Below the pieces are notes generated by a model. The model ran no database searches, had not been told where the DNA came from, and saw only the letters and a program-made list of their open reading frames with translations. A program made the translations under genes and the position numbers. 64,000 bases of DNA from a virus. Position 1 is the first letter of the stretch. The number at the start of each line of letters is the position of its first letter. Below are positions 14,692-46,536 of the stretch, one piece after another. Location of the stretch: IMG/VR virus record IMGVR_UViG_3300042353_000076, positions 3,267-67,266 of that record. One strand, written 5' to 3'.

Positions 14692-17600
14692 ATGATTAAT
14701 TACACTAACAACTTTCCTATAGTACCGGAGACACCAGAAACACCGAGACTGCAACCACAATACTACACAACTGGTAATCAATTCCTGATGGCTTATCAGG
14801 GTGCTCCTAACTATGTTGATGTTGCAAGAATGCATGAACCAGGTTTTTGGGGACCACAGCCTAACACTCAAAAAGATACCTATAACAATTTATATGCGCT
14901 GACACAAGCAGAATCTATTAGCACAGGTGGCGCACAGGGCTATGCCCAAAAGATTGCTCAGTATATAGGTATGGGACCTAATGAGTTCCAAGACTATTCA
15001 TTTGGTGCATTCCAGCGTGGTATTCTAATGGGTCAGAAAGATGATCCTTTAGCTCCGGCAGAGTTTGGAGCCAGTCAGTTAACTCCTGAAGTACAAGATA
15101 ATCTCCGCTCCATACTTTCCAAGTTGTTACCTATTGCTAAACAAGAACCACAAGATCCTGAGAATCCTACTCCAACACAAAAAAGAGTGAATGCTATGAT
15201 GTACCAGCTTGCCTATGCAAAAGCAAGCGAGGTTACTAAAACGGATCTTGGTTTCTCTATGGTTGATGCCTTCCGCTCACAAGCAGAAGTCTATGGTAAG
15301 ATTCTAAATGCTTATACTTATGGAGCCGCAGGTGCTTTATATGATGGATACAATGCAGCTTATAATCCTACTAAGAATACTAAGATTGCTAGAGGCATTG
15401 ATGATATTCTAAAGATTCGTAACCGAGTTGATTTAACTTTTGATCCTGCTATATGGTGGAGTAATTTAGATCCTACTGTCAAGCAGGGTTTTATTGAAAA
15501 TGGTATCTCATCAAATACAATTAGAACAGCACTCAATGAAGATGAAGCTAACTTTAGAATTGGTGAGATCATCTTTAAGAGTGATACGCAAAAAAGAATT
15601 GAAGCATATGCTCCCGGTTATTTTGATAGTGGGAGATTAATAGCAGATAATTTGGTTGGTGGTATTCTAAATTCTTCGGATACCGTTCCATTTATTGCTT
15701 TAGAAGTTGCAGCCACAGTTGCTACTGGTGGTTTTAATTTGGTTGCTACAGCATATGCAGCCCCTACGGTTGCTGTTGCAAGCACAGGCTTTGCTGTTTT
15801 TAGAGCAGCTCGTAATGTTGCTTCAACAATTGCTAAACTTCCCCTTGGACTAAGCCCAACCTATGCTAAGAATCTTGGCATGCTTGGTACTTATACTTTA
15901 ACTGGTTCAATATTCGGAGTTGGTGCAGCCTTACAAGAGGCTACCAGACAAGAGAAACAAATTGCTTATAGTAATGCTCTTCTTTTTGCGGACCCAGAAA
16001 TGCAGAAGGATTATGATCTTTCAAGCATTGGCTGGGCTGGTGGTGAAGGCTTTGCAATCGGCTTCTTAGGTTTTGGTTTAGCACCCGGAGTTATGGGCAG
16101 TACGGCTGGGGCTTTTTTAAACAAACTCAGGGGTGTCAATGTTGCCCCTCTGGGGGAATCTGTAGTTCGTATGACCGGAGACAAACGCTTTACCTATGAA
16201 GGTACACGCCTTGGTGAGGCTCTGGGATTCTACAAAGGCAAGTTAAGTCGTAAGGATGTAGCAGTTGATCTGCCCCTCCATGAGAAGATCATTACCGAAG
16301 CCGAGCTAGAGGGTGTAAAGCCATCAGCACAGCAGCTGAGTAATGAAACCCAGACTGCAGTCAATAGAGCTGATGCTCGTGCTGCAGTAACTCCTGATGC
16401 CGCTAGAGCAACCCCTGATGTCCCTATGACCAGACGGTTGGATAACGAAACCAGACAAGCCTATGCTGAACGCACAGGTGCTAATGGTACTCTCAGCAAC
16501 ATCATTGAGTTTGTTACTGAGATATCCCGTAAGAACTCAGCGGGGGATGCGGTTAAAGAACGCGCTTCCCTTACTGGGACGGGTGATACCTTTGGTGACA
16601 TGGGAACTACAGATAGACTTCGGATTCTTTATGCATCCGAAGAACATCTGAATACAACCAGACTTAAGGAAAAGGAAGCAGGTAAGTTAACCCCTGCTCG
16701 TGAGAAAGCCTATGCGATTATGGAGTCGCAGCGGCGTAGTATGATTAAACAATACACTAAGTCTCTATCCAAGCCAGAGCGTAAGGCTCTCAGTGATAGT
16801 CTTGGTGGTGTCAAGAAACCTGTTAAGACTATTACGGAACATGTAGCTGATGCTAGATCTACCGTGATCTCTTCAGCAGCCAAGAATGATGCAGCTGAAA
16901 AGGCTGCAGTCAGCTTGCTGGGAACAGCGCGAGAGATCGTAGCTAATCCATCAAGGAAGGCTGAACTCCGTGCTGATCTTCCAAAGGAAGTCTTAGATAT
17001 TCTTGATGCCGCAATCACTGAAGTTGCTATTACTGGCACAGTCAGTCCAAGTACTGTTGAAGCCCTAAAGGCAGACATTAGTGGAGTGGCTCGTAAGCCA
17101 TCCAATAGACTGACAAACTCAATTAAGGAAGCCCTTAAGATTAAGAAGTTGAATCCAAAGCGAATGGCTTTGATCAACGCACTTAAGGATGACATTAATA
17201 AGTTCTCTTCATTAGTTTCTGGTAACCAAGTCAATGCTGAGAAGTTCTTTCAGTTCACCAATGATTTAGTAGAGAATGAAATCATTAATGAAATTGACCA
17301 AGCTATTCTATTGGCTTCTGTAGTTCATTTAAACTTTGACTCCAAGGCTTTTGCAGTAGACTTTAAGATTGAACCAATTCTAGATGTGGATGGGAACATT
17401 GAGTACACCACAATTGGTGCTTACTCCGCAGCGAATAAGACAATAGTAATGAACAGCTTATGGATTGGTAATGATTCAGAGCGAAGAGCTATCACAGTCT
17501 TGCATGAAATTGGACATGCTTATTTCCAATCAAGTGCAACAGCTGATATCTATGTAGACAATCTAAAGATGTACAATAGTCTCACTCGAAACTATGGACC

Positions 17601-20600
17601 ATCCTTATTGAATCTAGATGTGGCTAATATGTCTGATCCATTACTCTCCGCTAACTTCCTGAGTGTGTATCATCTTCAGAATGCTGAAGAAGTATTTGTT
17701 CAGTCCTTCTCAAAGATTCTATTTACTGAAGCACAGCTTGCTGTATCACAGATGGCTCCAATTGAAGTATCTTCTTTTAGATCTATCATCAACAGCATGG
17801 AACAGGGGATCATACTTGCAGCCAGTATGTTTGATACTTCAGATCATTACACTGTTGTTAATGGTTTGATTAATCGTCTGACTGAAATGGATACGGCTGC
17901 ATCTAAAGCTATCTCTGTTCCAGACTTATCAAGAGCATATGCAGCTGCAGTAAATGCACAGACAGTATCAAGTGATATTGCCCCTAATGTGTTTAATACT
18001 TTTGTAAAAGACTGGATGATTAAGAATCTACCAGAGCATAGTCCAGAAGTTGTTAAGAGAGCTATGTTAACTAGTGGTGAATATAATCTCATTATGAGAG
18101 GTGAGAGAGATCCTTCTCTAATTGTTGCACTGACAATCCTAAAGAGCAATGGTAGACAAGCTATTGACATGAAGGGCAATCCTACTGTATATATGAAAGA
18201 CTTGGTTGATGTCTATAGTACATATAAGCAAACCCAGTTTGGGTCTATGCTTATTAAAACTGCCTTCTTACTTACTACTCCAGACTATGCACAACTAGTT
18301 GGAATGAGTAAAAAGGATCGTATCAAGTTCATGCAACGAAGATTGTTTAGCATGGGAGCCGAATCTTTTGAGTCGGTTCAGGGTGGTGTTGAAACCATCT
18401 TAGCTGCTACTTATGAAGATCGTGGTCTAGCCCAGATGCAAGCTACTAATTATTTAGATCCTCTAAATAAACCTAGTCGATACTCACACACCTTCTGGGG
18501 AACCAAAGCTACTTCGCTTATTGAACTGCTAGACAAGTCTGTTGAAGGAACTGCTAAGAATAGTCTTAGTGAAACTGATAGACTTGCTTTATTAGAGCAA
18601 GTAAGAAATGATCCATACTTGAACCAACCGTTGATGCATACCTTGAAAGACTATTATAAAAATAATGGCTTTGCAGATATTGCTCATCTGGTTACTCTGG
18701 TACATCATAAGCATTACATTGATACGCTCAAGGCAGAGGGTGTCTTTGACACCGAAGGTTTAAACCGTTCTTACATTGAAGAAGTTACATCCACACCGGA
18801 GTTCAAAAAGTTCTTTGGGGACAGCAAAGCTGTTGATGAGAATGGTAAGCCTATTATTGTTTATCATGGCACAACAACCTTAGTTGACTTCAATAAATTT
18901 AAATTGGGTGGTGGTATGTTTGGAAGTGGTGTTTACACAACTACCAATCCATCTACTGCTAATAACTTTGCTTTAGTAAATCCAAGACAACCTAATGCAC
19001 CTACGGGTGCTCGCCTCTTTCCTTTATTTATTAGTATTGTTAATCCTTTGATTTTAGATTATAGTAAAGAACCAAAAAGAATCTTACAGGAAGTTTACAA
19101 GCTATTAAAAGAAAAGAATTTAACCGAAGAGTATAATGCATTAAAGGAAGCCACACGCCTAGGAAATATGGCTGATGGGGAAACAGTCCAAACAATCTTT
19201 AATACATCTTTGGCTAAAGCAGTGGCAGCTTTGGGTTATGATGGTTATCAAATTAAAATGGCTGAGGGTAATACTTACTGGATTGCCCTTAAGGTAGAAC
19301 AAGTTAAGTCTGTCTACAACGAAGGAACCTTTAATAAACTTGATCCCGATATTCGTAGGGATATAGATGCTGGTGTTGATAACAATCAAACCCGTAAAGC
19401 TTTCTTAGAGCGCGTTAAAGAAACTCCTGAGTTTAAGATTTACTTTGATGGTAGTAAAGTTGTTGATGAGAATGGTAATCCATTGATTATGTATCATGGT
19501 ACACGCAGTGGTGGTTATGATCAGTTTAAATTACCAGAGAATCCTGAGTTTGGTTTGTTTGGTCCGGGTTATTATTTTACGGCTAATCCAAGTATTGCTT
19601 CTGAGTATGCAGTTAAGCCGGGAACAAGACCTAGTAAGGGAGCCTCTATTTATCCTGTTTACTTATCTATCAAAAATCCAATTGATATGGATGCACCGTT
19701 TGATCGAAATCTTTGGTCATCAGTTGTAAGTAATTATCGTATTTCACCAGAGCTAAGAGAAAAGTTAACTGACGGTTTAAAATATAATGGTGACTTATTA
19801 GCTCAGATTGAACGCCAGATAGAAACTACTAGAAAAGAATTTTTAGGACTTCCTCTTGGATCTGAAGGTATGATTACGGCAAAAGGTCTTGTACTTGAAC
19901 CAACATCTTATACAAAACAGTTTGATACAAATGAATCAGCATTTAGACAGCTAGAAGATAATATTATTTCTTATGTTGAAGATGGTGATGACTATGTTTC
20001 TGCTATAGTAATGGATCTGTTTAAACAATCTCCTATTGATGGCATCACACATATGGGTGGTGGTCGGGTAAAGGCAGATAGTGTAAGACACCGTGTTTGG
20101 ATTGCCTTTGAACAACCACAAATTAAATCTACTTCCAACAGAGGAACATTCAGTGTTACTGATCCTATTATCACAAGAGACATGGATCTTCCTATCTGGT
20201 CTTCCAAGGATATTGCTATTGATTCGATTGCTGCATTCCTAAGCAACAAGGATATTACTCATCTGAGTATTCCTACTTTGCTTAAGAACATTGATGCAGC
20301 ATTGATTCAAAAGATAAGCGATACTCCAAACATGACTCCTGAAAAACTCTTAACTGGTATTCACACAATGATTACTAGTGGTAGTATTGTCTTAAATGAA
20401 ACTTCTGGTAAGTGGGAACTTCCTTCTACTAAGAAACCAAAGAAACCAAGTAAAGCTGCCAAGGCTGCTAAAACGCCTAGGGCAAAGAAAGCAGTTGCAG
20501 CAAAAGAAGCTAAGGTAAAGGAAGCCGCAACGCTTGCCGCTATTTCCGATGGTAGTGAAGAACTTACTGTAGATAATCTAGATGATGTTGTTATTAGATT

Positions 20601-23600
20601 GTTCACAGAAGGCAAACTTACAGACGAAGAACTTGGTCCTCTATATGAGAACCGCCCATATCTCATTAAGAGAATTGAAGCAGGTAAGTTACCGTCTGTA
20701 AAGCATCTGCTTCGTCTTGCTGGAACAATTAAGAGAAGAGATTTTCTATCTGAACAAAGAAAAGGTAAGGCTGGTAAGAAAGATCAGCAAGGAGAAACTG
20801 CAGAAGGTATCCTCAAAGAAGGATCTGTACCGAGTAAAAATGCTGGTGTGTTTGTACCAACTACTGATAAAGAATTTAGTGCTATTATGTTTGACAGAGC
20901 ATTAACATGGAATAATCTCACAAACAATACTCTCTTAACTCCAGAAGAAGTTACGCTAGCTAAAGCCTTGCTATTGGTTGAGTCCGATAAAGAATTAGCT
21001 TCTAAGTCAGCCGAGCTTCTTGGTAAGAAAGTAGAAGATAGAACTATTGGCAACCGCAGAAATGCGTTGTATAATAAGATGGTTGCTATTGGTAAAGCTA
21101 TTGAATATGATCCAAAGGCTAGACTAGTAGAAACTCAAGACTCTCTTCTAGCACATGTTAAGCAAATGGATCAGGTTGTTACTAAGGCAGTAGAAAAGCC
21201 AGAGTCAGTTAAGGCGATTGTTAAGCAAGCCGAAGCTGCGCCAACTCCAAAGCAAGTATCTAATCCTATTGATGCTGGAAGTCGCTTGCTAGAGAAGCAA
21301 GCCTTGGCTGCTAGAAGTAAAAAGACCGATGCATCTCCAGTTATGACACCTGTTACAAAGGTGGAAGAGGGTACATTGTTTAGAGCTACTTCGGAAGTTA
21401 CTGGTAATGTTCCAGAAGCTGTACTACGACCAGAGAAACAAGTTGATGCTATCATTGAAAACAGTGATGTGTCAACCAAAGAAGCTGTGTCGTTTGTTCC
21501 TAAGAAGCCACTAACAATGACCATGACCGCAGCTGAGTTCATGGCTAACGAAGTTAAGATGGCATCCACTATGAAGGTTGCAGATAGAATGGGCGTTGAT
21601 GCTCTCGTCTTCTCAGACGGTGTAGTAATGCCAATTCAAGCTGATGCATCTGTAGTTGTTAAGGGTGTTACTGAAACTAAGGTTAAGGCGGGTGTTCCTT
21701 CTGTAACAAAGATTAAGGTTAAGAAAGGTGTGCCAATAAAGACTGTAACAGCTGCCGTTGAACCTCCTAAGGTTGAGGTAGTAGAACCAACCACAACTCC
21801 AGCTCCGGCTGTAGCACCTGTGGAAGATTTACCTTCAACTCCGGTTCCACTTGCAGCCAGCGAAGGCGCACCAGTTAGAGTTACTAAGACAGGTGGCATT
21901 GCTCCCCCTGCTCCACGAAAGACTGTATCAGACGTTGTTAAGACTACTGAGACAGAAAGAATAGAGCGGGTTGTTAATGATGATAAGGATCTACTCCGTG
22001 ACAATGGAATGGACCAAGGGTTCTTAAAGTTATTCTTAAAGAACTACTGGACACGCATGAAGAATATAGATAAGGCAGTTGATACTTACTCTCCTACGCT
22101 GTTGTCGCTGTGGACAAAGTTTGTTACTATCAACAAAGCAATTGTTGAAGCTAACAGAGCTGTCTTTGGTGATGAGGGTATATCCAAGTTCTGGATTGCG
22201 GTAGATAAGCTACGGGCTGAAAATGTTCAGAAGCTTGCTACTGTTCCGGGTTTCAAGTCTTTATCAGAGCGTCAGCTTATGGTGCTTGCTGCTAAGGAAG
22301 TTGGAGATGCTTACATGCCTCCTATTCTTTTGGATGAATTAAATATTGTTAAATCATCTGAGGATGCTACTGCATTTACTTTAGTTGCCAAGGAGTCTAA
22401 GACTCCGCGAAAGAAAGTAAGTGATGCTACTAAAGCAGAGTCTCCTGTGCCTGTACCACCTGAGCCAACTCCAGCTCCAGCCCCTAAGGCTGGTGAGGAA
22501 GTTCCAGTTACGCCAGAAACTATTCCATTAGAACCTATAAAAGAAACACCTAGAGGTGATATGGGTAGAATCATTAATACTGCTACAAAGGACTCCGAAC
22601 AAAGTACATCAGTGCTCTTGCGTCAAGGAAGTCTTATTGGAGCAATCTTTGGTGGTAGTGAACGAGCATCTAGAAACTGGTGGAGAGCAATGAATAGTTG
22701 GATGGCTAATGCAACACAGGCTGCTAGTCAGACTGGTAAGACCATTAGAAATCTACAGAAGAATATTCGATTCTTATCTCGTTTGTTTGAAGACAACCGA
22801 GCACAGTCAGGACATTTAGTTGGAGCAGGTAAGGAAGCTTTCCGAACTGCAAGACAATGTAAGTCTGATGAAGCCCGGATGATTACTCGTATTGCTAGAC
22901 AACAACTCTTACTCAATAAAAAGTTAAAGGATAGTGGACTAGCTCTAGATAAGGTTAGAGCTGTTGGTGTACTAAGTTATACAAAGCTTTCAGAGGGTAC
23001 TATTATTGCCCCTGCTGATCTTGTTGCTCTTGGTCTATCTCCAGACCTAGCTAAGTCAATAGCTGTTGAAGCTAATTCATTATTACAAATTACAAGACAG
23101 ACCAATCAAACTATATTAGGTTTACAGAATGAGACAGGTTTGTTTAATAGCAATGCTGCTGATGGTACGCCATTTGATCCTATGAAGTATGCTCCAGTTC
23201 AGTTGAACCATGAAAGCTTCTCAGCTATGAGTCCAACTGATCGTGCTCTCTTTGTAGCGGGTCTTGTAAAGGCTCGTAGAACTCGTAAGTTAAAGTCACC
23301 AATCTTAGACATCAATACACTTATTGTTCTTGGTTGGCTAGACGTTGCTCCATCAAAAGAGGCGAGAGGTACTGCCTTGTTTGCTGGCAAGCGAGACTTT
23401 AGACCCGGTGAGTCAACTCAGAGCTTTAGCCCTGAGACTCTAGCTGGTCTAAAGATATCTGAACATCCAATTACTGTTGGTGAGAAAGGTGTTCTAGCTA
23501 CATTGGCTAATGGTTCTGACTCACAGAATTACTTTGTTCTTACAAATGATAAGAGTGGTGTTATCACATTATATCGAATGCCTAAGGTCATTAGTGAACT

Positions 23601-25914
23601 AGCTGATGCCGATAGAGTTCGTTACATTGAAGCAGTCAACGGCAATAAATCTTTGTATACCCAACGGTGGCAAGACTACCTAAAGGGTAGAGAGCTTATT
23701 GAAGTTGAGATGAATGAGATGTTAGACTATAAGACAAAGAAGGGTGCATACAGTGAGTACCAGAGAAACACTGGTACTAACATTGATAGACCTCTGATGG
23801 TAGTTGATCAGGCAGCGGAGACAGCTTTGGCTGTTCCCGGTTTGATTCCTGAAGAAGTACTATCCGATCCTGTTATTCTAAAACACATTAGAACCAATCT
23901 AGCTGAGTCTTATAATTACTTTATGAATGGTAGAGTATTTGAACTTATCTTCCAGAGAGAACTTGATAGACTCATGGGTTCTCGCAATGTAAGAATCACT
24001 GATGTGTTTCCTCATGTAGCTAGTGAAGCCAGAAGAGATATAGAGGCTATAGCTAAAGCTGAAAACTGGACACCCGGACAGCTAGCTGCAAGACTCCAAG
24101 ATGTTACGGAAGGTATTCAAAGACTTAAGGATGAGTATGCATCTAATGCAGATACTCTTCCTATGCTTCCTTATCAGGATCAAGCGGCTGCAAGAAGCCT
24201 ATTGGCATTGATGAAGATTAAGGTTGCTTCCGGTTACTACCTTGGGGCAATGACTGAGCTTATAATGGAAACTCTAAAGTCAAATCCTTTACATCTTCCG
24301 GGTAATCTCATTAGTACTTTAAGGTTTGTGGTCGGAGACTTTCGAGTCTCAAAGAACTCTCTTATGAATAACTCTGAGCTTGGGGATATGATCTTCGGTC
24401 TAGAAAATATTAAGTATGAGTTTAGTTCTCGATTCTTGGGTGAAGCAAATCAAGGAGCATTTGAATTAGATTCTACAATTGGATCTAAGATCAAGGGTAA
24501 ATTTATTAATCCCCGCCCTGCAACGGGTCTTGTGGATAGAGGCGTTCGTGTTCTAGAGTCTGGAGCTAGAGTTGCTGAGACTATTGGTTCGCTACAAGCG
24601 ATCACCAATATAACCAGATCAATGGCTAAGGTCCGACTACAGCGTATGATCTATGGTCATATTAAGAAAGGTAGAATTCAAAAGCTACTAGTAGCCCTAG
24701 AAGATCCTGCTATGATGAAACTCATGCAGGACTATATGGCAGCTGCAGAAACAAGCGCAGGAGCAGAGAATCAGCTCCGTAAACAATTCTATGCATTGGC
24801 TAGAAAGACTGGCTTCGGGTTCAACCCAAAGGAAGCTCTAGTCTTTATGAAGTATGGTTTAAACTCTGTCGAGAAGATTAAACATCTTGAATATTTAATT
24901 AAGAAGGTTGACAAGAAGGGTGAAGGTCGGGTTAATCTACACAACATGGTTGATGTATATTGGCATGCTACGACTCATCCTGTTGCTGGGATTAAACCAG
25001 AAGTATTAGAGCAAGTTATTAGTTCTTACGGACTTGCCCTAGAAGATCTGATTGTAAAGACATCTACACCTGAACCTATTGGTTTAGGTCGAGTTACTAC
25101 GATTGATTCCAAGACACCACTTGGTAAACTCTGGTATGCTCTTAGCTCCTACATCCGTGGGTTCCAAGATAATGTTATACTGGATTATGGTAGCCGCGAT
25201 ACACTTCGGTACTTAGCCGCTAACATAGTTCTCTATGGAACATTGGATGCCACTATCGGTCTACTCCGTGAGTGGCTAGCCGGAAGAGATGGCGAGGATA
25301 TCCTTGAAGAGTTCTCAGATAACCCACATGCCTTTGCTGTCCGTGTAGCTAAGTCTGCCCCTATCATGGGAATGTGGTCTGGTGCTCTAGAGGCTGGTTT
25401 AAGTGGTCTGAGCTACATGTCTGGTGGAACTTGGAAGTACTACGGTAGTCCAATGCAGTCCATTGGTATGGGAGCTGCTACCGGGGCTGTAGAGAGTATT
25501 GGTAGAGGCGTTAGTGAAGTTGTAGAAGGAGTCACGGGTGATGAAGAAGTTGATTACATGAAGGTTGCTAAGGGAGTTGGTGATATCACATCAGTTAACT
25601 CTTTGTTAAACCGAAGTCCAATTGCTGTGGCTGCTAGATCCCTAGAAGTCTCAGGAGCTTTGGAAGAAAAGGGAACATTGCAAACCTACATGAACATGAT
25701 TCACAAGAACCCACATCCTTATGCAAAGAGCCAAGGAAGAAAACAAAGTTCTTCTCAGTCGTTACCACCGATACCTAAGGTTGCCCCCCGCAACTTTGAG
25801 CTGGAAGCCCAAGCCCTTAAGAAGGCAAGAGCAGCCCAAGCCGGAGTCCGTTATGAAGACATGTCAAAGGGTGTATCAGGTTCCCTAGGGGATCTCTTAG
25901 ATAATGCCCAATAG
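14692..25914 (+). CDS. Giant internal virion/ejection protein (gp16-position), polyvalent: zincin metallopeptidase motif plus two ART-PolyVal-like ADP-ribosyltransferase domains
   Basis: 3740 aa. Hydrophobic G/A-rich segments near aa 335-480 and the C-terminus, as in gp16. VLHEIGH...NAEEVF at nt 17497-17697. Two copies of TPEFK.(F/Y)F..SK.VDENG.P...YHGT...G.FG.G.Y.T.NP..A...A...P+++SI.NP...DG...WIA....Q+KS..N.GTF...DP.I.RD at 18793-19365 and 19423-20181. Confidence 0.8.
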   Translation: MINYTNNFPIVPETPETPRLQPQYYTTGNQFLMAYQGAPNYVDVARMHEPGFWGPQPNTQKDTYNNLYALTQAESISTGGAQGYAQKIAQYIGMGPNEFQDYSFGAFQRGILMGQKDDPLAPAEFGASQLTPEVQDNLRSILSKLLPIAKQEPQDPENPTPTQKRVNAMMYQLAYAKASEVTKTDLGFSMVDAFRSQAEVYGKILNAYTYGAAGALYDGYNAAYNPTKNTKIARGIDDILKIRNRVDLTFDPAIWWSNLDPTVKQGFIENGISSNTIRTALNEDEANFRIGEIIFKSDTQKRIEAYAPGYFDSGRLIADNLVGGILNSSDTVPFIALEVAATVATGGFNLVATAYAAPTVAVASTGFAVFRAARNVASTIAKLPLGLSPTYAKNLGMLGTYTLTGSIFGVGAALQEATRQEKQIAYSNALLFADPEMQKDYDLSSIGWAGGEGFAIGFLGFGLAPGVMGSTAGAFLNKLRGVNVAPLGESVVRMTGDKRFTYEGTRLGEALGFYKGKLSRKDVAVDLPLHEKIITEAELEGVKPSAQQLSNETQTAVNRADARAAVTPDAARATPDVPMTRRLDNETRQAYAERTGANGTLSNIIEFVTEISRKNSAGDAVKERASLTGTGDTFGDMGTTDRLRILYASEEHLNTTRLKEKEAGKLTPAREKAYAIMESQRRSMIKQYTKSLSKPERKALSDSLGGVKKPVKTITEHVADARSTVISSAAKNDAAEKAAVSLLGTAREIVANPSRKAELRADLPKEVLDILDAAITEVAITGTVSPSTVEALKADISGVARKPSNRLTNSIKEALKIKKLNPKRMALINALKDDINKFSSLVSGNQVNAEKFFQFTNDLVENEIINEIDQAILLASVVHLNFDSKAFAVDFKIEPILDVDGNIEYTTIGAYSAANKTIVMNSLWIGNDSERRAITVLHEIGHAYFQSSATADIYVDNLKMYNSLTRNYGPSLLNLDVANMSDPLLSANFLSVYHLQNAEEVFVQSFSKILFTEAQLAVSQMAPIEVSSFRSIINSMEQGIILAASMFDTSDHYTVVNGLINRLTEMDTAASKAISVPDLSRAYAAAVNAQTVSSDIAPNVFNTFVKDWMIKNLPEHSPEVVKRAMLTSGEYNLIMRGERDPSLIVALTILKSNGRQAIDMKGNPTVYMKDLVDVYSTYKQTQFGSMLIKTAFLLTTPDYAQLVGMSKKDRIKFMQRRLFSMGAESFESVQGGVETILAATYEDRGLAQMQATNYLDPLNKPSRYSHTFWGTKATSLIELLDKSVEGTAKNSLSETDRLALLEQVRNDPYLNQPLMHTLKDYYKNNGFADIAHLVTLVHHKHYIDTLKAEGVFDTEGLNRSYIEEVTSTPEFKKFFGDSKAVDENGKPIIVYHGTTTLVDFNKFKLGGGMFGSGVYTTTNPSTANNFALVNPRQPNAPTGARLFPLFISIVNPLILDYSKEPKRILQEVYKLLKEKNLTEEYNALKEATRLGNMADGETVQTIFNTSLAKAVAALGYDGYQIKMAEGNTYWIALKVEQVKSVYNEGTFNKLDPDIRRDIDAGVDNNQTRKAFLERVKETPEFKIYFDGSKVVDENGNPLIMYHGTRSGGYDQFKLPENPEFGLFGPGYYFTANPSIASEYAVKPGTRPSKGASIYPVYLSIKNPIDMDAPFDRNLWSSVVSNYRISPELREKLTDGLKYNGDLLAQIERQIETTRKEFLGLPLGSEGMITAKGLVLEPTSYTKQFDTNESAFRQLEDNIISYVEDGDDYVSAIVMDLFKQSPIDGITHMGGGRVKADSVRHRVWIAFEQPQIKSTSNRGTFSVTDPIITRDMDLPIWSSKDIAIDSIAAFLSNKDITHLSIPTLLKNIDAALIQKISDTPNMTPEKLLTGIHTMITSGSIVLNETSGKWELPSTKKPKKPSKAAKAAKTPRAKKAVAAKEAKVKEAATLAAISDGSEELTVDNLDDVVIRLFTEGKLTDEELGPLYENRPYLIKRIEAGKLPSVKHLLRLAGTIKRRDFLSEQRKGKAGKKDQQGETAEGILKEGSVPSKNAGVFVPTTDKEFSAIMFDRALTWNNLTNNTLLTPEEVTLAKALLLVESDKELASKSAELLGKKVEDRTIGNRRNALYNKMVAIGKAIEYDPKARLVETQDSLLAHVKQMDQVVTKAVEKPESVKAIVKQAEAAPTPKQVSNPIDAGSRLLEKQALAARSKKTDASPVMTPVTKVEEGTLFRATSEVTGNVPEAVLRPEKQVDAIIENSDVSTKEAVSFVPKKPLTMTMTAAEFMANEVKMASTMKVADRMGVDALVFSDGVVMPIQADASVVVKGVTETKVKAGVPSVTKIKVKKGVPIKTVTAAVEPPKVEVVEPTTTPAPAVAPVEDLPSTPVPLAASEGAPVRVTKTGGIAPPAPRKTVSDVVKTTETERIERVVNDDKDLLRDNGMDQGFLKLFLKNYWTRMKNIDKAVDTYSPTLLSLWTKFVTINKAIVEANRAVFGDEGISKFWIAVDKLRAENVQKLATVPGFKSLSERQLMVLAAKEVGDAYMPPILLDELNIVKSSEDATAFTLVAKESKTPRKKVSDATKAESPVPVPPEPTPAPAPKAGEEVPVTPETIPLEPIKETPRGDMGRIINTATKDSEQSTSVLLRQGSLIGAIFGGSERASRNWWRAMNSWMANATQAASQTGKTIRNLQKNIRFLSRLFEDNRAQSGHLVGAGKEAFRTARQCKSDEARMITRIARQQLLLNKKLKDSGLALDKVRAVGVLSYTKLSEGTIIAPADLVALGLSPDLAKSIAVEANSLLQITRQTNQTILGLQNETGLFNSNAADGTPFDPMKYAPVQLNHESFSAMSPTDRALFVAGLVKARRTRKLKSPILDINTLIVLGWLDVAPSKEARGTALFAGKRDFRPGESTQSFSPETLAGLKISEHPITVGEKGVLATLANGSDSQNYFVLTNDKSGVITLYRMPKVISELADADRVRYIEAVNGNKSLYTQRWQDYLKGRELIEVEMNEMLDYKTKKGAYSEYQRNTGTNIDRPLMVVDQAAETALAVPGLIPEEVLSDPVILKHIRTNLAESYNYFMNGRVFELIFQRELDRLMGSRNVRITDVFPHVASEARRDIEAIAKAENWTPGQLAARLQDVTEGIQRLKDEYASNADTLPMLPYQDQAAARSLLALMKIKVASGYYLGAMTELIMETLKSNPLHLPGNLISTLRFVVGDFRVSKNSLMNNSELGDMIFGLENIKYEFSSRFLGEANQGAFELDSTIGSKIKGKFINPRPATGLVDRGVRVLESGARVAETIGSLQAITNITRSMAKVRLQRMIYGHIKKGRIQKLLVALEDPAMMKLMQDYMAAAETSAGAENQLRKQFYALARKTGFGFNPKEALVFMKYGLNSVEKIKHLEYLIKKVDKKGEGRVNLHNMVDVYWHATTHPVAGIKPEVLEQVISSYGLALEDLIVKTSTPEPIGLGRVTTIDSKTPLGKLWYALSSYIRGFQDNVILDYGSRDTLRYLAANIVLYGTLDATIGLLREWLAGRDGEDILEEFSDNPHAFAVRVAKSAPIMGMWSGALEAGLSGLSYMSGGTWKYYGSPMQSIGMGAATGAVESIGRGVSEVVEGVTGDEEVDYMKVAKGVGDITSVNSLLNRSPIAVAARSLEVSGALEEKGTLQTYMNMIHKNPHPYAKSQGRKQSSSQSLPPIPKVAPRNFELEAQALKKARAAQAGVRYEDMSKGVSGSLGDLLDNAQ

Positions 25915-25928
25915 TTGGGGCTACTAGA
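25907..25928 (+). promoter_or_regulatory. Putative phage RNAP promoter, copy 1 (right-end, phiOR-like)
   Basis: CCCAATAGTTGGGGCTACTAGA; the core ATAGTTGGGGCTA recurs within the copies at 29772, 38020 and 46482. Confidence 0.7.
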
Positions 25929-25932
25929 TAGA

Positions 25933-26075
25933 TACTTAAGGGATACCTTGAGTAACCTAGACTGTCTTTAAGTTTTTAAAATTATGTTATTATATTATAT
26001 AGTAATACATAGTCCCTTAGGTAACCTAAGGGTAACCCTAGTTAACCTAAGTGTTAATTTTAATATTATATAAAC
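25933..26075. repeat. AT-rich palindromic tract with TAACCT(A) repeats; putative right-end origin or maturation region
   Basis: TACTTAAGG..CCTTGAGTA and CCCTTAGGTAACCTAAGGG inverted repeats, four TAACC(C/T) units and very AT-rich runs, all directly downstream of promoter copy 1. Confidence 0.5.
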
Positions 26076-26080
26076 ATACA

Positions 26081-26112
26081 GATCCTAGGTCCCCGAAAGG
26101 GGATCTAGGATT
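26081..26112 (+). terminator. Strong hairpin with GAAA tetraloop
   Basis: GATCCTAGGTCCCC-GAAA-GGGGATCTAGGATT followed by ATTT. Confidence 0.55.
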
Positions 26113-26342
26113 ATTTAAGGAATAGAGCACTCCGGGGTTTACCCCCCGGTTAATCCCTTGTCGATTTCCTATGGGGTCCCCGGATCCCTCTGGGGCTACC
26201 GGAGGACATCAACACAAACAACCCCACACAGGGCAAGCTAGGGGGATCCCTACTCAATCTAGAAATCGACTAGAGGGGTCAAAAATTAGCGAAGGGGTAT
26301 CCCCCCTAAATCCCCCCGCGCAACCCCCCGTCATCCCGCCAT

Positions 26343-26435
26343 GTCCGATAACCTGAGGGGCGTGGCGCGTCCGATAACCTGTGGGGATCAAAGTCCGATA
26401 ACCTTGGTGGCGAGGGATAAAGTTATCGGACTTTG
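26343..26435. repeat. Three direct repeats of GTCCGATAACCT plus one inverted copy
   Basis: Direct copies at 26343, 26369 and 26393 (24-26 nt period). CAAAGTCCGATAAC (26389-26402) is perfectly inverted at 26422-26435. Confidence 0.85.
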
Positions 26436-26440
26436 CTGCC

Positions 26441-26995
26441 ATGCGTTGCGGATTTCCGCGGCTGATGCGTTGTAAAGTGTCAGCGAATACGAATCGCCGA
26501 CCTGATTGCACCTTACCGGATCTACCGCCCTCACGGGACATCGTAGCAGGTAAAGCCAACGCCCGAAGGGTTGTCGGAGGTGATGTCACGCAGACCGCGC
26601 GAACCCCGGCTTGAGTGCCGATGGATCCCTCACCGACATGAGGGGGGCAGTAGCGTCACAAGCGTGAATGTTATCAGAACTTCCCCTACGATATGGAACG
26701 CATCCAATAAGCCGTCCTAGTAGGTAACCCGATGAATCCTCGCACTTATGGTAAGCCGATGATTCTGACGTAAGGAAGTGGCACGAGGAGTGCTATGCCC
26801 ATAGGGCATCGTTCAATAAGCGTAACTTGCAGCCCCAAGAGGTGGAGCAAGTGAGGAGATTGAATAAGACTGAGGTATAGTAAAGGCGAAAGCGATAGAT
26901 ATCTCAGTACGTAAGATGGTGGATACTCTAGTTTGGCACTAGAGTACCCTCTAGAATCCCCTGCGTTCTTTCGTAGGGTATTGCTAGAGGGTAGA
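26441..26995 (+). ncRNA. Candidate large structured non-coding RNA (unclassified)
   Basis: No credible ORF, visibly GC-richer than the coding regions, and at least 10 consecutive stems with G-U pairs (listed in findings). Confidence 0.5.
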
Positions 26996-27035
26996 ATTGT
27001 TCTATCCTTTCATCCTCTTTCGGAGAATAATCACT

Positions 27036-27335
27036 ATGGATAAGAATACTCTCATTACTTTCATGAACAAGGGTCGTTCTGCTGATATGGAAACCGCCGG
27101 AGCGGTGTATGATTACTTGTACTGCAAGGCTAAGAATGCCAAGCATACTACGCAAGGCATTGCATCGTCTGTCTTTGGTCAGATGAATGCTCTGTTGGTT
27201 CGCGGTGGTCATCTTGGCTTTGATCGTGATGAACGGGCTGAGTTCAATTCGTGGGTTGGTCTACCTGCTCCCGGTACTAACAAGAGCAATGCTGCTAATG
27301 AAGCATCGAATGTTCTTGCTGAGTTTGGTCTGTAA
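27036..27335 (+). CDS. Early hypothetical protein (first early gene)
   Basis: ATG 27036 after GGAG; 99 aa. Confidence 0.65.
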   Translation: MDKNTLITFMNKGRSADMETAGAVYDYLYCKAKNAKHTTQGIASSVFGQMNALLVRGGHLGFDRDERAEFNSWVGLPAPGTNKSNAANEASNVLAEFGL

Positions 27336-27353
27336 GGTATGATCTAATCTATC

Positions 27354-27385
27354 GGATGGTAGGGGTGAAATATCCCCTATCATCC
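27354..27385 (+). other. Intergenic hairpin (RNase III site or terminator candidate)
   Basis: GGATGGTAGGGG-TGAAATAT-CCCCTATCATCC, 12-bp stem, no U-tract. Confidence 0.45.
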
Positions 27386-27401
27386 ATTCAAGGAGGTTAC
27401 T

Positions 27402-27590
27402 ATGGCTACTAAGACGATTGATACGGTTGGTCGGCAGTTGTTGTTGAATGCAGGGAATTCATCTCAGGATGAACTGAAGGCATTCCAATACCTTCGGGGT
27501 ATGGGGTTGAATGAGAAGGCTGTTATCATTGCACTCCGTAAGGTTGGAGTGTTTACTAAGATTCGTATCAATAAGAAAGTAGGCAAGTAA
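27402..27590 (+). CDS. Early hypothetical protein
   Basis: 62 aa; strong AGGAGGT RBS. Confidence 0.65.
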   Translation: MATKTIDTVGRQLLLNAGNSSQDELKAFQYLRGMGLNEKAVIIALRKVGVFTKIRINKKVGK

Positions 27591-27847
27591 TGTCAGTAGT
27601 AGGAACACAGACATTGAACGGTATCTCTAAGGAGTTTAATCGTGGTGGTGTCATTGTTATTAAGGAGATCAAGGATGAGCAAGATTACTGTGGATACCGT
27701 ATGTATCCTTTGGTTGATCCTTGTGATTATGTTGATGTAGTCTATGCTGAGACTGCCATTAAGTATCTCGGTCGTATTGCCGATGAGAATGCGTATGAGA
27801 TTCGTTATAACAATGGAACTATGTTTGCTAAGAAAGTAGGAAAGTAA
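27590..27847 (+). CDS. Early hypothetical protein
   Basis: 85 aa; TAATG coupling to the upstream gene. Confidence 0.6.
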   Translation: MSVVGTQTLNGISKEFNRGGVIVIKEIKDEQDYCGYRMYPLVDPCDYVDVVYAETAIKYLGRIADENAYEIRYNNGTMFAKKVGK

Positions 27848-27848
27848 C

Positions 27849-28121
27849 ATGATCGTAGTAACAAGTCGGAGTCTTGAGGTACTCACCGCGCATGGTGATA
27901 AGGGAACGCTTCCCCTTGGTGTCTTTAGTGATATGAAGGATGTACAAGAGAGTCGATTGGCTGATATGGTTGCTGAATCATTGCCGGGATGGGCTAGGGA
28001 TTCAATTAAGATTGAGATGCGACAAGTGTCTGCTAATCAGTGGATTAGTATATGTCATGATGATGGAGCGTGTATGCATGTTAATATGTTGGACATTACA
28101 TCTGTCCTTCACTATGTCTAA
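27849..28121 (+). CDS. Early hypothetical protein
   Basis: 90 aa; abuts the previous stop codon. Confidence 0.55.
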   Translation: MIVVTSRSLEVLTAHGDKGTLPLGVFSDMKDVQESRLADMVAESLPGWARDSIKIEMRQVSANQWISICHDDGACMHVNMLDITSVLHYV

Positions 28122-28152
28122 GACTTACTTTCTTTCCTATAAAGGAGACACT

Positions 28153-28538: not shown

Positions 28539-28621
28539 TTATGATGGTTGCATCATGGGTTATTGTATGTATTGTATTGAGTTGTTATATTAACTACCTC
28601 TTTACTGATAAGGAATATTAA
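28535..28621 (+). CDS. Small single-TM early protein
   Basis: 28 aa MIMMVASWVIVCIVLSCYINYLFTDKEY; coupled at both ends (ATGA, TAATG). Confidence 0.45.
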   Translation: MIMMVASWVIVCIVLSCYINYLFTDKEY

Positions 28622-28845
28622 TGAAAGTAACTATTGAAGGAGAGGATGTGCTAGTAGTACTGTGTCTCCTTCGGGAATCCATTAGTGAGTATGGTACTAA
28701 TCTAAATCACAACTATCGTGATAGTTTCGATACCGATGCGGAGTATGAGATTGCACACATGAGTAACATTGCTACCATTGGTGCATTGTGTAATGTGTAC
28801 ACTAAGATGTTTACTAGCATGGAATATCCGGAGGCTACGCAATGA
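28621..28845 (+). CDS. Early hypothetical protein
   Basis: 74 aa; AAGGA RBS. Confidence 0.6.
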   Translation: MKVTIEGEDVLVVLCLLRESISEYGTNLNHNYRDSFDTDAEYEIAHMSNIATIGALCNVYTKMFTSMEYPEATQ

Positions 28846-29771: not shown

Positions 29772-29793
29772 CCGAATAGTTGGGGCTACTGAT
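29772..29793 (+). promoter_or_regulatory. Putative phage RNAP promoter, copy 2
   Basis: CCGAATAGTTGGGGCTACTGAT in an intergenic gap. Confidence 0.7.
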
Positions 29794-33872: not shown

Positions 33873-36344
33873 ATGTCTAAACTGTGGGATTCATTATCTA
33901 AAGAAGAACAAGATAAAAGAACTGCACTACAAGTTATCTCTGAGGAAGATATGCTTTGTCTGTCGGAACATAAATACTGGGATGCATACAATGCTAACCC
34001 TGATGAGGGTATCCCTGAGCAAACATTGATTGACGCATGTGTCATCCATCTTACACCCTTCTACCAGCAATGGATAGATACGGTATCACAGAATAGGAAG
34101 ACACCTGAATGGGCATTCCCTTTGTTTGCTGTTGGTGCTGCTAAGATGGCAGACATTACTATTAGATCACTGATTCTCGAATGGTTTAACTCTGCTTTCT
34201 GGGAGCGTAAGTATGAGAACGATCTGTTCCCATTGCCTACTGCTCAACACATAGCACATGTTATATCTGAGATGGTAGTGGAGATTGTAGCCTATCAACA
34301 GGCTAAGAAACAATTCCGTGAGGATTGGCTCAAGCAATCCCACTACCAGAAGAAGTGGACTACTAAGCGATGCAAGGCGTTTGCCTATAAGATGGGTACT
34401 CTTAATAAGAAAACCTTCTCAAGGAAACAACGCGAAGACTTTGGTCATCACATGCTACGCATAGCGGAGATGTCTGAGGTCATTAACTTAAAGAACATTC
34501 GTAAGCATACAGGCAAGCGATGGAGTGAGCGTGTAGTAGTTACCTTTACTGATGACATATTGAGTGAACTTAATAAGCGTCATCAGGATGTGATTGCTAC
34601 CGCTGCCCTGCTGTATCGACCAATGATTATCCCACCAATTAAACATACTCTAAGTAGTAGTGGTGGGAATCTACTACCCCATATCCGTAAGCCTGTAGTA
34701 CAGAAGTTTAAGGATGTGATGTGGGATGAGAAGGTACACCAGAATGGTAGCCTTCCATCAGAGATAGTAGTCACTGGTCTTAATGCTATGATGCATACCG
34801 AATGGTCTATCAATGAGCGGGTGCTAGAGATAATGACTGCACTCTTTAAGAACAACACACGAGATGCTAACCTTCCCGTGTATGACTTCTCAGCCTTTGA
34901 CTTTGCTGATCCCTATCCTAAGGATGGGACTAAAGAAGAGAAGGCTAAGTGGTGTCAGCTCAAGGAAGAAACATATAGCAATTGGTATAAGGAAGAACGA
35001 TCACGAGGTCGTATGCTTGTCCGGATTAAACTGGCGCAATCATTAATCCCTCTGAAGTTCTTCTACCATATTTATACCTGTGACTTCCGTGGTCGTGCTA
35101 ATGCAGCATGTGATCTACTTAGTCCACAGTCAAGTGACTTTGATCGTGGTCTTATTCAGTTTGCTCAGCCAAGGAAACAAACATCCATTGGTTTGTATTG
35201 GTTAAAGATTCATGTCGCTAATCTATTCGATCAGGACAAGACAACCTTTGATCAACGAGTTAAGTGGGTCGATGATAACATGGACATGCTTAAGAGAATC
35301 AATGATGATCCCTATGCTACCCGCTCTGAGTGGGTATCACATAAGAAGAAAAAGAATCCAAGCTTCCAGCGTATCGCTGCTGTCTTTGATCTGTGTCGTA
35401 CTGATGGGTTAACTCAAGTGCCTGTGCAAATGGATGGTTCATGTAACGGTGTTCAGCATTGGGCTGCACTTATGCGTGACCCTTATCTTGCCAAGAAGGT
35501 TAACCTCATACACACTAACAAGCCCGAAGATCTGTATCAGTATGTTGCTGATGTGATGACATCTAATATGGTGTCAGTACAGGATGCAGATACTAACAAT
35601 GGAAAATGGGCGAAAAAATTTATAGAGTATTGGGAGGGTGACATTGACCGCTCTGTTTGTAAGAGAGCAGTAATGACTGATCCCTATGGTGTTACCTTCT
35701 ATGGTATTCGCAGGTACTGTAAGACTGAGGGTCACCTTGATTGGGTTGGTAAGGATGAGATTGCTGGTGCTGTTGTCGAGTTAGCTACCTTCATTGATGC
35801 TGCCCTCAAGGGTACATTGGTCGAGGCTAACAAGGGCAAGGCATGGCTCAAGGTGGTGGCTGATATGGCTAGTGAACTAGGTAAGAATGTTGAGTGGACT
35901 ACCCCGTGTGGGTTTAAAGTAGTACATCAATACTATGAGATACTAACTAGACGATCAGTCGCTAAGCTATTCGATATGAAAGAGTTACACTTTGGCTCAC
36001 CCGATAAGGAAACAATTGATGGTGGCTCAGTTAATCTAGCCATCTCCCCTAACTATATTCACTCACTTGATGCAAGTCATATGTGGTGTACCATATATAG
36101 AATGGTTGGTGCTGGTATTGAACAGTTCAGTATGATCCATGATTCATATGGTTGTCCTGCACCTGATGTTAATCTAATGCGTATGTTTACTAATGAAGAG
36201 TTCTGTGCTATGCATACGACCAATCTATTAGATGACATGCGGATCGAAGTATCAAAAGCATTGAAGATTACAGTACCTGATGCACCACCTACTGGTTCAT
36301 TAAACATTAAGGATGTTTTAGATGCGGAGTATTTCTTCCAATGA
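33873..36344 (+). CDS. Single-subunit DNA-directed RNA polymerase (T7 gp1-like)
   Basis: 823 aa. PMIIPP, DFRGR, motif A DGSCNGVQH, motif B RSVCKRAVMTDPYG, SPNYIHSLDASH and motif C IHDS. Confidence 0.97.
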   Translation: MSKLWDSLSKEEQDKRTALQVISEEDMLCLSEHKYWDAYNANPDEGIPEQTLIDACVIHLTPFYQQWIDTVSQNRKTPEWAFPLFAVGAAKMADITIRSLILEWFNSAFWERKYENDLFPLPTAQHIAHVISEMVVEIVAYQQAKKQFREDWLKQSHYQKKWTTKRCKAFAYKMGTLNKKTFSRKQREDFGHHMLRIAEMSEVINLKNIRKHTGKRWSERVVVTFTDDILSELNKRHQDVIATAALLYRPMIIPPIKHTLSSSGGNLLPHIRKPVVQKFKDVMWDEKVHQNGSLPSEIVVTGLNAMMHTEWSINERVLEIMTALFKNNTRDANLPVYDFSAFDFADPYPKDGTKEEKAKWCQLKEETYSNWYKEERSRGRMLVRIKLAQSLIPLKFFYHIYTCDFRGRANAACDLLSPQSSDFDRGLIQFAQPRKQTSIGLYWLKIHVANLFDQDKTTFDQRVKWVDDNMDMLKRINDDPYATRSEWVSHKKKKNPSFQRIAAVFDLCRTDGLTQVPVQMDGSCNGVQHWAALMRDPYLAKKVNLIHTNKPEDLYQYVADVMTSNMVSVQDADTNNGKWAKKFIEYWEGDIDRSVCKRAVMTDPYGVTFYGIRRYCKTEGHLDWVGKDEIAGAVVELATFIDAALKGTLVEANKGKAWLKVVADMASELGKNVEWTTPCGFKVVHQYYEILTRRSVAKLFDMKELHFGSPDKETIDGGSVNLAISPNYIHSLDASHMWCTIYRMVGAGIEQFSMIHDSYGCPAPDVNLMRMFTNEEFCAMHTTNLLDDMRIEVSKALKITVPDAPPTGSLNIKDVLDAEYFFQ

Positions 36345-38019: not shown

Positions 38020-38041
38020 CCCTATAGTTGGGGCTATAGAA
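38020..38041 (+). promoter_or_regulatory. Putative phage RNAP promoter, copy 3
   Basis: CCCTATAGTTGGGGCTATAGAA in the gap upstream of the SSB cluster. Confidence 0.7.
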
Positions 38042-45779: not shown

Positions 45780-46536
45780 TACTGCTGTGCTTGACGGAGA
45801 CATCATTGCCTATCGTGCTGCCTTTTGGGCAGACCAAGAAGGCATTGAGTACCTTGCGGAGCGCATCGAACATGATGTCAAGGCATGGACTCCAGTAGGA
45901 GTAACGAAAGTATATGTGGCTATCTCCTGTGATCGTAAGGATAACTTCCGTAGACAGGTGTGGGAACCATATAAAGCCCATCGGGATGTGAAGAAACAAG
46001 CACCAGATTGTTTATCATATGCTGTTGATTTAATTAAACAGAACGACATACTCTTTGTTCCTACCCTAGAGGCTGATGATATTATGGGACTTATGGCTTC
46101 AGGCAATAAGGCTATTGCCGTAACCATTGACAAGGATCTCCGGTCTGTACCGGGGTGGCATTGGAACCCAGACAAAGAAGTTAAACCTCTGGAACTTGAT
46201 ACTTATACCGCTGACTTTAACTTCCACAAGCAGTGGATCATGGGTGATACGACTGATAATATCCCCGGTATCTGGAAGTGGGGACCTGCCAAGGCAGAGA
46301 AGTGGCTTAAGTATGTCCATCCAAGGAACTGGACAGCCGCCGTATTGGCAGCTTATGACCAAGCTAAGCCTCAGGAAATGGATAGATATGGATATGATTA
46401 CTGTCTCGCTATGGCTAGGTGTGTACGCATCCTTAGACATGGTGAATATAACAAGAAAACTAAGTCCGTACTATTGTTTGACCCAATAGTTGGGGCTACT
46501 AAGAGTGATACTCAAGGGAACACTAATGAACACTGA
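45757..46536 (+). CDS. 5'-3' exonuclease (gp6-like)
   Basis: LDGDII.Y, NFR...YKAHR, LEADD, DKDL and GDTTDNIPG motifs. Confidence 0.93.
   Translation: MISQPRPDTAVLDGDIIAYRAAFWADQEGIEYLAERIEHDVKAWTPVGVTKVYVAISCDRKDNFRRQVWEPYKAHRDVKKQAPDCLSYAVDLIKQNDILFVPTLEADDIMGLMASGNKAIAVTIDKDLRSVPGWHWNPDKEVKPLELDTYTADFNFHKQWIMGDTTDNIPGIWKWGPAKAEKWLKYVHPRNWTAAVLAAYDQAKPQEMDRYGYDYCLAMARCVRILRHGEYNKKTKSVLLFDPIVGATKSDTQGNTNEH
46482..46503 (+). promoter_or_regulatory. Putative phage RNAP promoter, copy 4
   Basis: CCCAATAGTTGGGGCTACTAAG within the 3' end of the exonuclease gene; 20-nt identity with copy 1. Confidence 0.7.

Follow-up and report, generated by a model that had tools for sequence, protein, structure and literature searches.

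The window, i.e., the whole stretch of DNA analysed here (64,000 nucleotides), corresponds to bases 3267-67266 of a phage record of 67,266 bases, which is estimated to be 99% complete and is classed as linear without end repeats. The source phage is an uncultured freshwater T7-like podovirus, and the runs containing the stretch, X1-X19 with 53-100% of its words, are lake-water metagenomes. All the ORFs of at least 200 aa in the window are located on the + strand. Apart from a T7-type single-subunit RNA polymerase, the window carries genes for primase/helicase, DNA polymerase, ribonucleotide reductase, portal, major head, tail and terminase, as well as four tRNA genes (Rfam scan). In general terms, its gene order is: (i) small early ORFs; (ii) tRNAs; (iii) the RNA polymerase; (iv) replication genes; and (v) structural genes. 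The last late gene and the first early ORF are separated by a gap of 1.1 kb (25914 to the ATG at 27036), inside which the stretch under study, 26441-26995, is found. Because of the gene order, this gap has the end of the expression programme on one side and its start on the other and, by analogy with T7, genome ends and an early control region are expected in such a gap. The genes of reference are the following:

14692-25914, + strand: last late gene, 3740 aa, with an ART-PolyVal domain (PF18760, 3.8e-36, residues 1382-1544)
27015-27335, + strand: ribosome-binding site (RBS) region (GGAGA) and first early ORF, gene 1 (ATG 27036, 99 aa, no known family)
33873-36344, + strand: T7-type single-subunit RNA polymerase (phrog_414, 4e-143; PF00940, 1.8e-83)

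The ADP-ribosyltransferase domain of the 3740-aa protein is of the kind found in polyvalent proteins, and this protein probably belongs to the virion and is ejected from it. When the early ORFs of the window and of two relatives (L005 and L006) were compared with Pfam and PHROGs, no family passed, the sole marginal PHROG match (28621-28845, E 0.0079) being to a function-unknown family. A blastn search in distant mode against 50,697 phage records gave no cultured phage match to 26000-27100, and the nearest cultured RNA polymerases show <28% identity. The first-pass annotation had regarded the stretch as the first early transcript, made right after entry. The stretch does adjoin the first early gene of a T7-like phage, a position given by gene order only, from which the early timing is likewise deduced.

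Sixteen distinct versions of the gap were collected from IMG/VR and metagenome contigs by means of protein and motif scans. The order of the elements is common to all of them:

first, a motif resembling a phage promoter, placed at the giant gene's stop codon
second, an AT-rich stretch with CCTAAG-type repeats
third, a 14-bp hairpin in the closest relatives of the window, this stretch being missing in more distant ones (L009 and the like)
fourth, a C-rich block, strongly conserved in sequence
fifth, direct and inverted copies of an iteron (GTCCGATAACC in the window)
sixth, a variable ORF-free stretch, hereafter the cassette
seventh, a conserved hairpin set around CCCCTGCGTTCTTTCG, hereafter the 3' module
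eighth, the ribosome-binding site, followed by gene 1

Other scans added little to this set. A profile search with gene 1 found only the L007 contig, and scans of GTDB genomes with two patterns gave 0 matches each. The 16-mer matches L008 and L014-L016 turned out to be unrelated on inspection; most of the 31 loci of a 16-mer scan do not match the region, and all 29 loci of a further scan were due to chance. Within the region, the contigs of the relatives end at scattered places, which are probably assembly breaks at the variable part and not genome ends.

The upstream half of the gap contains several elements that might control transcription or act as DNA:

25907-25924, 29772-29789, 38020-38037 and 46482-46499, all + strand: copies of the 18-nt motif CCNAATAGTTGGGGCTAC, intergenic or at gene ends
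26081-26112, + strand: 14-bp perfect hairpin with a GAAA loop (z -6.45), followed by UUAUUU
26343-26431: GTCCGATAACC iterons, three direct and one inverted (4 copies vs 0.31 expected)
26474-26479, + strand: TANNNT element, at the cassette border

The 18-nt motif is present four times in the window against 0.12 expected. Its copy at the stop of the giant gene is kept in distant relatives and points, from 25907, into the non-coding gap. CCNAATAGTTGGGGCTAC is likely to be a promoter of the phage's own RNA polymerase, and the region could also be transcribed later from the copy at 25907. Sigma-70-like sites are absent from 26100-27035 and occur only in the AT-rich 25975-26069. Just past this AT-rich part, and ~160 nt downstream of the promoter-like motif, the hairpin at 26081-26112 could be a terminator or a 5' stabiliser. 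Counted from the last iteron, the TANNNT element of the window falls in a band of 38-48 nt; 7 of 14 relatives have one in this band, whereas L007 has none, and the TTGC.. element 20-22 nt upstream of it is too far away for a promoter. A terminator-like site with a weak T tail is located further downstream, at 26986-27010.

The block ~26118-26340, which includes GCACTCCGGGGTTTACCCCCCGG, GGGGTCAAAAATTAGCGAAGGGGTATCCCCCC and three phased C6 runs (G-runs on the - strand), retains 85-93% identity even in cases where the protein of the adjacent gene is down to 72%. It may be a terminal-repeat or packaging region. For the conserved block 26130-26440 as a whole, the signals of RNA structure are mixed and strand-inconsistent, with no consistent conservation signal, and the block looks like a sequence-level, probably DNA-level, element. 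The iterons vary in number and orientation among relatives, their copies co-varying in L051 and L053, and they look like protein-binding sites for an operator, packaging or replication function.

It could be proposed that the hairpins of the neighbouring stretch also act in DNA, where concatemers join or the genome ends, with a role in packaging, in the arrest of ejection or in replication. This proposal, which we consider improbable, is favoured by its location (T7-like genome ends are expected in this region) and by the adjacent 25900-26485, which carries the iterons, lacks consistent structure conservation and is 85-93% identical though the neighbouring gene region is only 75-78% identical at the DNA level (in L006, the gene beside it stands at 72% at the protein level). 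The points that speak against it arise from the cassette and the 3' module, and are given below.

The stretch 26441-26995 had been described as a GC-rich, ORF-free block tiled by stems. Its GC content is indeed high (0.46-0.585 over 26300-26999, against 0.32-0.44 in the flanks), and the ten stems listed are correct in sequence and place, most of them appearing also in the minimum free energy (MFE) folds of the + strand. Taken literally, the stretch is not ORF-free, since three small ORFs overlap it, but none of them is conserved and the region is non-coding:

26441-26614, + strand: 57-aa ORF, whose ATG at 26441 is lost in L007
26571-26720, + strand: 49-aa ORF, broken by a 1-nt insertion at ~26661 in the comparison with L007
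26254-26589, - strand: 111-aa ORF, with a 4-nt indel near 26340 between the window and L005

As had been anticipated from the letters, the stretch does not correspond to a known RNA family: Rfam 15 (4227 models) gave no match in it. Over the whole window, the gathering threshold was reached by 4 matches, all tRNA. With E<=10, there were 9 weak matches in 25900-27100, the best of them with 25.1 bits against a cut-off of 122, and 0 within 26460-27100. Nothing was found in the leaders of the relatives, that is, in 12 of them at the gathering threshold and in 9 at E<=0.5.

The folding energy of the 555 nt is better than that of shuffles on the + strand (MFE -197.3 kcal/mol, z -2.90, 0/100 shuffles as low), but the - strand performs equally (-194.8 kcal/mol, z -3.75) and the variable stretch alone is weak (z -1.16 for 482 nt, with bounds taken from motif matches, ~26435-26915). 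Perfect stems of at least 8 bp number 2 against 0.2 expected (maximum 2), and other 555-nt windows of the genome reach 2-3. Thermodynamics alone makes a modest case, and the decisive support is comparative. The weak z of the variable part and the unexceptional count of perfect stems would suit a functionless spacer, whose stems would have arisen by chance or as a side effect of recombination and of a GC-rich sequence; so would the fact that one relative, L049, dispenses with the cassette. We regard such a spacer as very improbable in view of the compensatory changes described below.

Comparison with the relatives divides the stretch and its continuation up to the RBS as follows:

26441-26485, + strand: end of the family-conserved block, with the hairpin GCTGATGC/GTGTCAGC at 26461-26484
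26486-26868, + strand: lineage-specific structured cassette, including a three-way domain (26580-26675) and tandem units (26723-26738 and 26750-26765)
26869-27014, + strand: family-conserved 3' module

The leader is composed of a fast-evolving, exchangeable multi-hairpin cassette (~26486-26868) and a family-conserved module (26869-27014). BLAST homology ends at 26485-26486 in L002, L005 and L006, and the hairpin at 26461-26484 is only partly kept in the latter two. The homology between the window and most relatives stops at 26485/26486 and resumes only at ~27850-28130; therefore, the variable stretch makes up one exchangeable unit with the three or four early ORFs that come first, the cassette being inherited together with the first few early genes. 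Over its final 500 residues, the protein of the 3740-aa gene is 97-98% identical in L002 and L005, whose leaders are unrelated after 26485; at the DNA level, the adjacent late gene of L005 is 95% identical to that of the window. The length of the cassette ranges from 79 to ~530 nt (527 nt is the longest among the 12 relatives scored), the shortest being that of L049, in which the motif of the 3' module and the RBS are nonetheless kept.

These data are relevant for two known types of phage RNA. GOLLD and ROOL are families of large RNAs, found in a phage context, which have a conserved core across many members. The stretch studied here is likewise large, ORF-free, rich in helices and located in a phage, but it has no Rfam match and a large part of it is unconserved even among sister phages. 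Its assignment to a conserved class of large ornate ncRNAs (GOLLD/ROOL-like) was rejected, inasmuch as no core is shared and the cassette is unrelated even among near-identical phages. Accordingly, the suggestion of a new large ncRNA stands as regards a non-coding region with selected pairing and no known family, but not as regards a conserved, stand-alone ornate RNA of ~550 nt. The second type is the prohead RNA of phi29, a structured RNA encoded where the early region begins and showing little sequence identity from one relative to another. A structured RNA has the same position here; nevertheless, no Rfam family (that of the prohead RNA included, if in the library) reached E<=10 in 26460-27100. 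A packaging RNA of phi29 type was also rejected: co-inheritance with packaging or structural genes is not observed in L002 and L005. Since it has been exchanged between phages whose late gene end is 97-98% identical, the cassette is not co-evolving with virion genes. That the cassette is swapped with early genes, and not with packaging genes, also argues against hairpins acting at the DNA level.

Besides the window, only L007/L012 have the window-type cassette sequence, at 96% identity. The comparison comprises three sequences, two of them near-identical, and the stems in 26486-26868 outside 26580-26675 are mostly without informative variation. From 26445 to 27035, 24 substitutions and one insertion separate L007 from the window. 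According to the MFE fold of the window, 12 of these substitutions are unpaired, 9 keep pairing and 3 break a pair (two at helix ends, together with 26458, which is internal). The changes that keep pairing consist of three wobble changes and three double-compensated pairs, the latter being (i) 26589/26664, C-G to U-A; (ii) 26591/26662, C-G to G-C; and (iii) 26599/26654, G-C to A-U. All three are located in the following domain:

26580-26675, + strand: three-way junction domain, with compensatory changes with respect to L007; both sequences fold alike

When L007 was threaded on the MFE helices of the window, an energy of -194.9 was obtained, against -172.7 +/- 6.0 for random mutants, with 0/2000 as good; in other words, threading costs L007 10.5 kcal/mol, and random mutants with the same changes ~33. 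The reciprocal threading on the folds of L007 itself is weaker (z -1.92 for the + strand, z -2.76 for the - strand). In another cassette type, represented by the leaders of L005 and L025, 12 of 73 pairs are changed on both sides. The base pairing of the region is under selection. It is this evidence (i.e., compensatory changes and threading between the window and L007, together with covariation in L005/L025 and in the 3' module) that a functionless spacer does not account for. The covariation that had been called for does exist, in the form of compensatory pairs with L007, with the distant relative L058 and among seven relatives, but most cassette stems have no informative variation.

At 26801-26803, the loop closed by ATGCCC/GGGCAT reads ATA in the window and TAT in L007. 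This exact loop inversion is a mark of template switching within an inverted repeat.

Regarding short motifs, none is common to the ten leader types: no 6-8-mers exceed shuffles. The reuse of motifs noticed in the unpaired parts finds no support in the window, where RTAAGNCG is not enriched (8 matches vs 7.6 expected), but GGTAAGAC does recur four times in the distant relative L058. The unit CGCAC..AUGG(G)UAAGNCG occurs once in the window (26741-26758) and is unique in the 64 kb; in L058, the unit CGCAC..AUGGGUAAGACG is repeated four times. The possibility that CGCAC..ATGGTAAG.CG is a genome-wide phage promoter was discarded, as there is only 1 exact copy.

The relatives that were compared share a single part of the leader: the only family-wide part is a four-way junction around CCCCUGCGUUCUUUCG, in the last ~100-150 nt. 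The elements of the 3' module, and the hairpin that follows gene 1, are:

26869-26908, + strand: hairpin D7 (ACUGAGGUAU/AUAUCUCAGU), with a GC-GAAA-GC tip and a counterpart at the same place in L058
26915-27014, + strand: four-way junction (MFE z -5.15)
26915-26919 (GAUGG) with 27010-27014 (UCAUC), + strand: P0, closing helix
26924-26946, + strand: Hx, helix of the four-way junction
26946-26992, + strand: H1', interrupted helix of 8+3+7 pairs
26959-26973, + strand: motif CCCTGCGTTCTTTCG, 5' arm and loop of H1', unique in the window
26992-27004, + strand: H3, helix of the four-way junction
27354-27385, + strand: post-gene-1 hairpin of the window, 12 bp, z -3.6
L053 ~12015-12070, L017 ~7590-7640, L005 ~7060-7105 and L025 ~3300-3350: post-gene-1 hairpins of relatives

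The distant window-type relative L058, whose gene 1 homologue is 40% identical and whose 3' part is 79% identical to 26915-26994, has D7, Hx, H1', H3 and P0. Compared with the window, its H1' shows two double-compensated pairs and its H3 is different in sequence and still paired; its D7 stem is wholly different (AGAAUAACC/GGUUAUUCU), the inner sequences being alike (AAAGGC...AGCGAUAG). Of the 12 complete relatives, 7 carry the exact 15-mer CCCTGCGTTCTTTCG, as does the partial L048; the seventh base of the motif differs in L025, L046, L054 and the partial L050, and in L046 and L049 it ends in C or T instead of G. In seven type-A modules, 91.3% of 208 cells are paired (82.1 +/- 1.4 in shuffles, 0/500) and 10 of 30 pairs are changed on both sides (3.5 +/- 1.2 in shuffles, 0/500), with slid controls at 33-50%. 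The MFE z of the module goes from -4.7 to -9.2 in 10 complete copies. A covariance model built from seven other relatives finds the window at 26947-27048 (26.1 bits, E 8.7e-6).

In every relative, the module is placed directly before the RBS. The covariance model also matches hairpins just 3' of gene 1 in 5 relatives; these are hairpins of ~20 bp, almost fully paired, which carry CUAGGGUA and are located between genes 1 and 2. As for the size criterion of RNase III (~20-22 bp of dsRNA), both the interrupted H1' of the window, with its 8+3+7 pairs, and its post-gene-1 hairpin, with 12 bp, are short. The complementarity of the UUCUUUCG loop to purine-rich RBSs, which might suggest an anti-Shine-Dalgarno role, is expected anyway.

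In the early region of L046, ~1 kb downstream of the start of gene 1, a match to the self-cleaving Pistol ribozyme was observed (RF02679; 2350-2421 on the - strand of the locus, which is the direction of its genes; 38.9 bits vs a cut-off of 34.5). The Rfam scan found no Pistol ribozyme in the window.

HK022 put and lambda nut also have conserved RNA hairpins that follow the early promoter region and precede the first gene, and a cis-acting antitermination RNA of this kind, whose junction would modify the host polymerase for ~9 kb of early read-through, has to be considered. It would agree with the adjacent conserved hairpins, whose invariant sequence is found just upstream of gene 1 in all relatives, with the distance to the phage RNA polymerase gene (33873-36344), 6.8 kb downstream, and with the C-rich, G-poor stretch upstream (26200-26340). 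Nevertheless, no similarity to an Rfam family was found, and comparable hairpins are found here after gene 1 as well, a recurrence that fits processing better than a single polymerase-loading site. We give antitermination a small chance.

The idea that G-U pairs favour the + strand does not hold for the window's own energies, but it does for the 3' module of the relatives, in which 26 G·U cells are found against 5 A·C cells (type-A module). This G·U excess points to an RNA of the + strand. The composition-corrected energy asymmetry favours the + strand in 9 of 12 cases, with p<=0.03 in 4, and is not significant for the window, L007 and L058. For the window type, MFE values by strand are -205.4 (+) and -207.2 (-), a strand call from the energies of the variable part is not significant, and threading was rejected as specific of the + strand, as the - strand is preserved equally on mirrored helices (z -3.64). 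All the genes run on the + strand, which, we infer, would be that of the RNA of the window type too. The failure of window-type thermodynamics and threading to separate the strands is a further point for hairpins that act in DNA. The opposite is true of the G·U excess in the covarying 3' module and of the composition-corrected strand bias (a cruciform needs both strands paired), as it is of a module that directly adjoins the RBS.

Contigs from RNA libraries provide additional information, bearing in mind that they are assembled contigs with one depth figure each, without strand or true ends. In library X21, a short contig covers 26569-26686 and 26774-26937 with a depth of 77.9, other phage contigs having 4-13; in library X22, a short contig covers 26569-26686 and 26774-26915 with a depth of 14.7, other phage contigs having 2.3-3.6. 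Both libraries come from one study, and DNA carry-over is possible. In these contigs, 55 nt take the place of 87 nt in the tandem-unit region, so further window-type variants exist. They give no cover at 26050-26568 and 27015-27800, although absence in contigs proves nothing. In X20, another RNA library, a contig extends over 26902-27103, across the module and into gene 1. These contigs suggest, albeit weakly, that RNA from part of the leader is abundant, as a ~350-nt piece 5-6x deeper.

Such a piece would be expected if the cassette were cut or terminated off the early transcript and released as a stable RNA of ~350-550 nt that acts in trans on a host or phage protein, for instance as a decoy or sponge against a defence system or a nuclease, with an arms race driving the exchange of cassettes. 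We deem this RNA, and likewise its decoy role, unlikely. Besides the deep short contigs of X21/X22, the hypervariability of the cassette, its exchange together with the first early genes, and the units CGCAC..AUGG(G)UAAGNCG (once in the window, four times in L058) speak for it, as do the candidate ncRNAs derived from 5' UTRs that PMC10914365 describes for virulent Pseudomonas phages. On the other hand, X21 and X22 are assembled contigs from one study with possible DNA carry-over, the X20 contig runs through the module into gene 1, L049 is almost without a cassette, and the leader types have no common motif. Equally doubtful, in our opinion, is the full scheme in which exchangeable RNA cassettes at the first-entering end of the DNA are cut at the four-way junction, remain stable and act in trans on host factors.

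The reading that we prefer, to which we grant an even chance, is that 26441-26995 makes up most of a modular, structured 5' leader of the early operon, whose conserved 3' module is probably a processing or translation-control site. The left-end layout of T7 serves as a reference in this respect. Its early leader and RNase III sites (R0.3 and those between early genes) are comparable in the several-hundred-nt untranslated stretch that goes from the entry end to gene 1, and its early transcript also contains long hairpins before gene 1 and between early genes. There are differences as well: no sequence or model similarity to the T7 leader exists, and what is seen here is a conserved four-way junction with an invariant 16-nt motif plus an exchangeable cassette with selected helices, cleavage being predicted.

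A leader with processing sites is suggested because the module adjoins the RBS, the hairpins recur after gene 1, L049 retains the motif and the RBS although its cassette measures only 79 nt, RNase III accommodates ~22 bp of dsRNA (PMC6212723), and cuts at five sites turn the T7 early precursor into mature messages (PMC4858673). According to this reading, the leader would be transcribed on the + strand along with the early genes, and the long hairpins of the 3' module and between early genes would be RNase III-type processing or stabilising sites, much as the early precursor of T7 has five RNase III sites. Such processing would free the gene 1 message of its leader and determine how gene 1 is translated, and the dense folding of the cassette might protect it from nucleases or premature termination. 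The promoter, the timing, the cleavage and the effect on gene 1 are presumptive parts of this scheme.

A second term of comparison is provided by the ncRNA candidates of Pseudomonas phages detected by ONT-cappable-seq, which, in the part of PMC10914365 devoted to them, are also structured pieces from the 5' UTRs of operons. Those candidates are described there as <250 nt long, produced by premature termination and conserved in sequence within a genus (PMC10914365). Compared with that description (PMC10914365), the leader studied here is longer and is hypervariable between near-identical phages. What is unusual in the present case is the combination of a hypervariable structured cassette and a family-wide four-way junction across a group of uncultured lake phages.

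The early regions of T7-like phages are known for their fast-changing sets of small host-takeover proteins. In these phages, modularity extends to the untranslated RNA ahead of the early genes, whose fold is under selection and which near-identical phages exchange. Should the cassettes be released to act in trans, they would constitute a new class of phage early RNAs, and their swapping would be the RNA-level counterpart of the swapping of early anti-defence genes. If they are leaders only, the conserved junction would still be a new cis-regulatory or processing element. The junction is also a practical landmark of the point where the early operon begins in these genomes.
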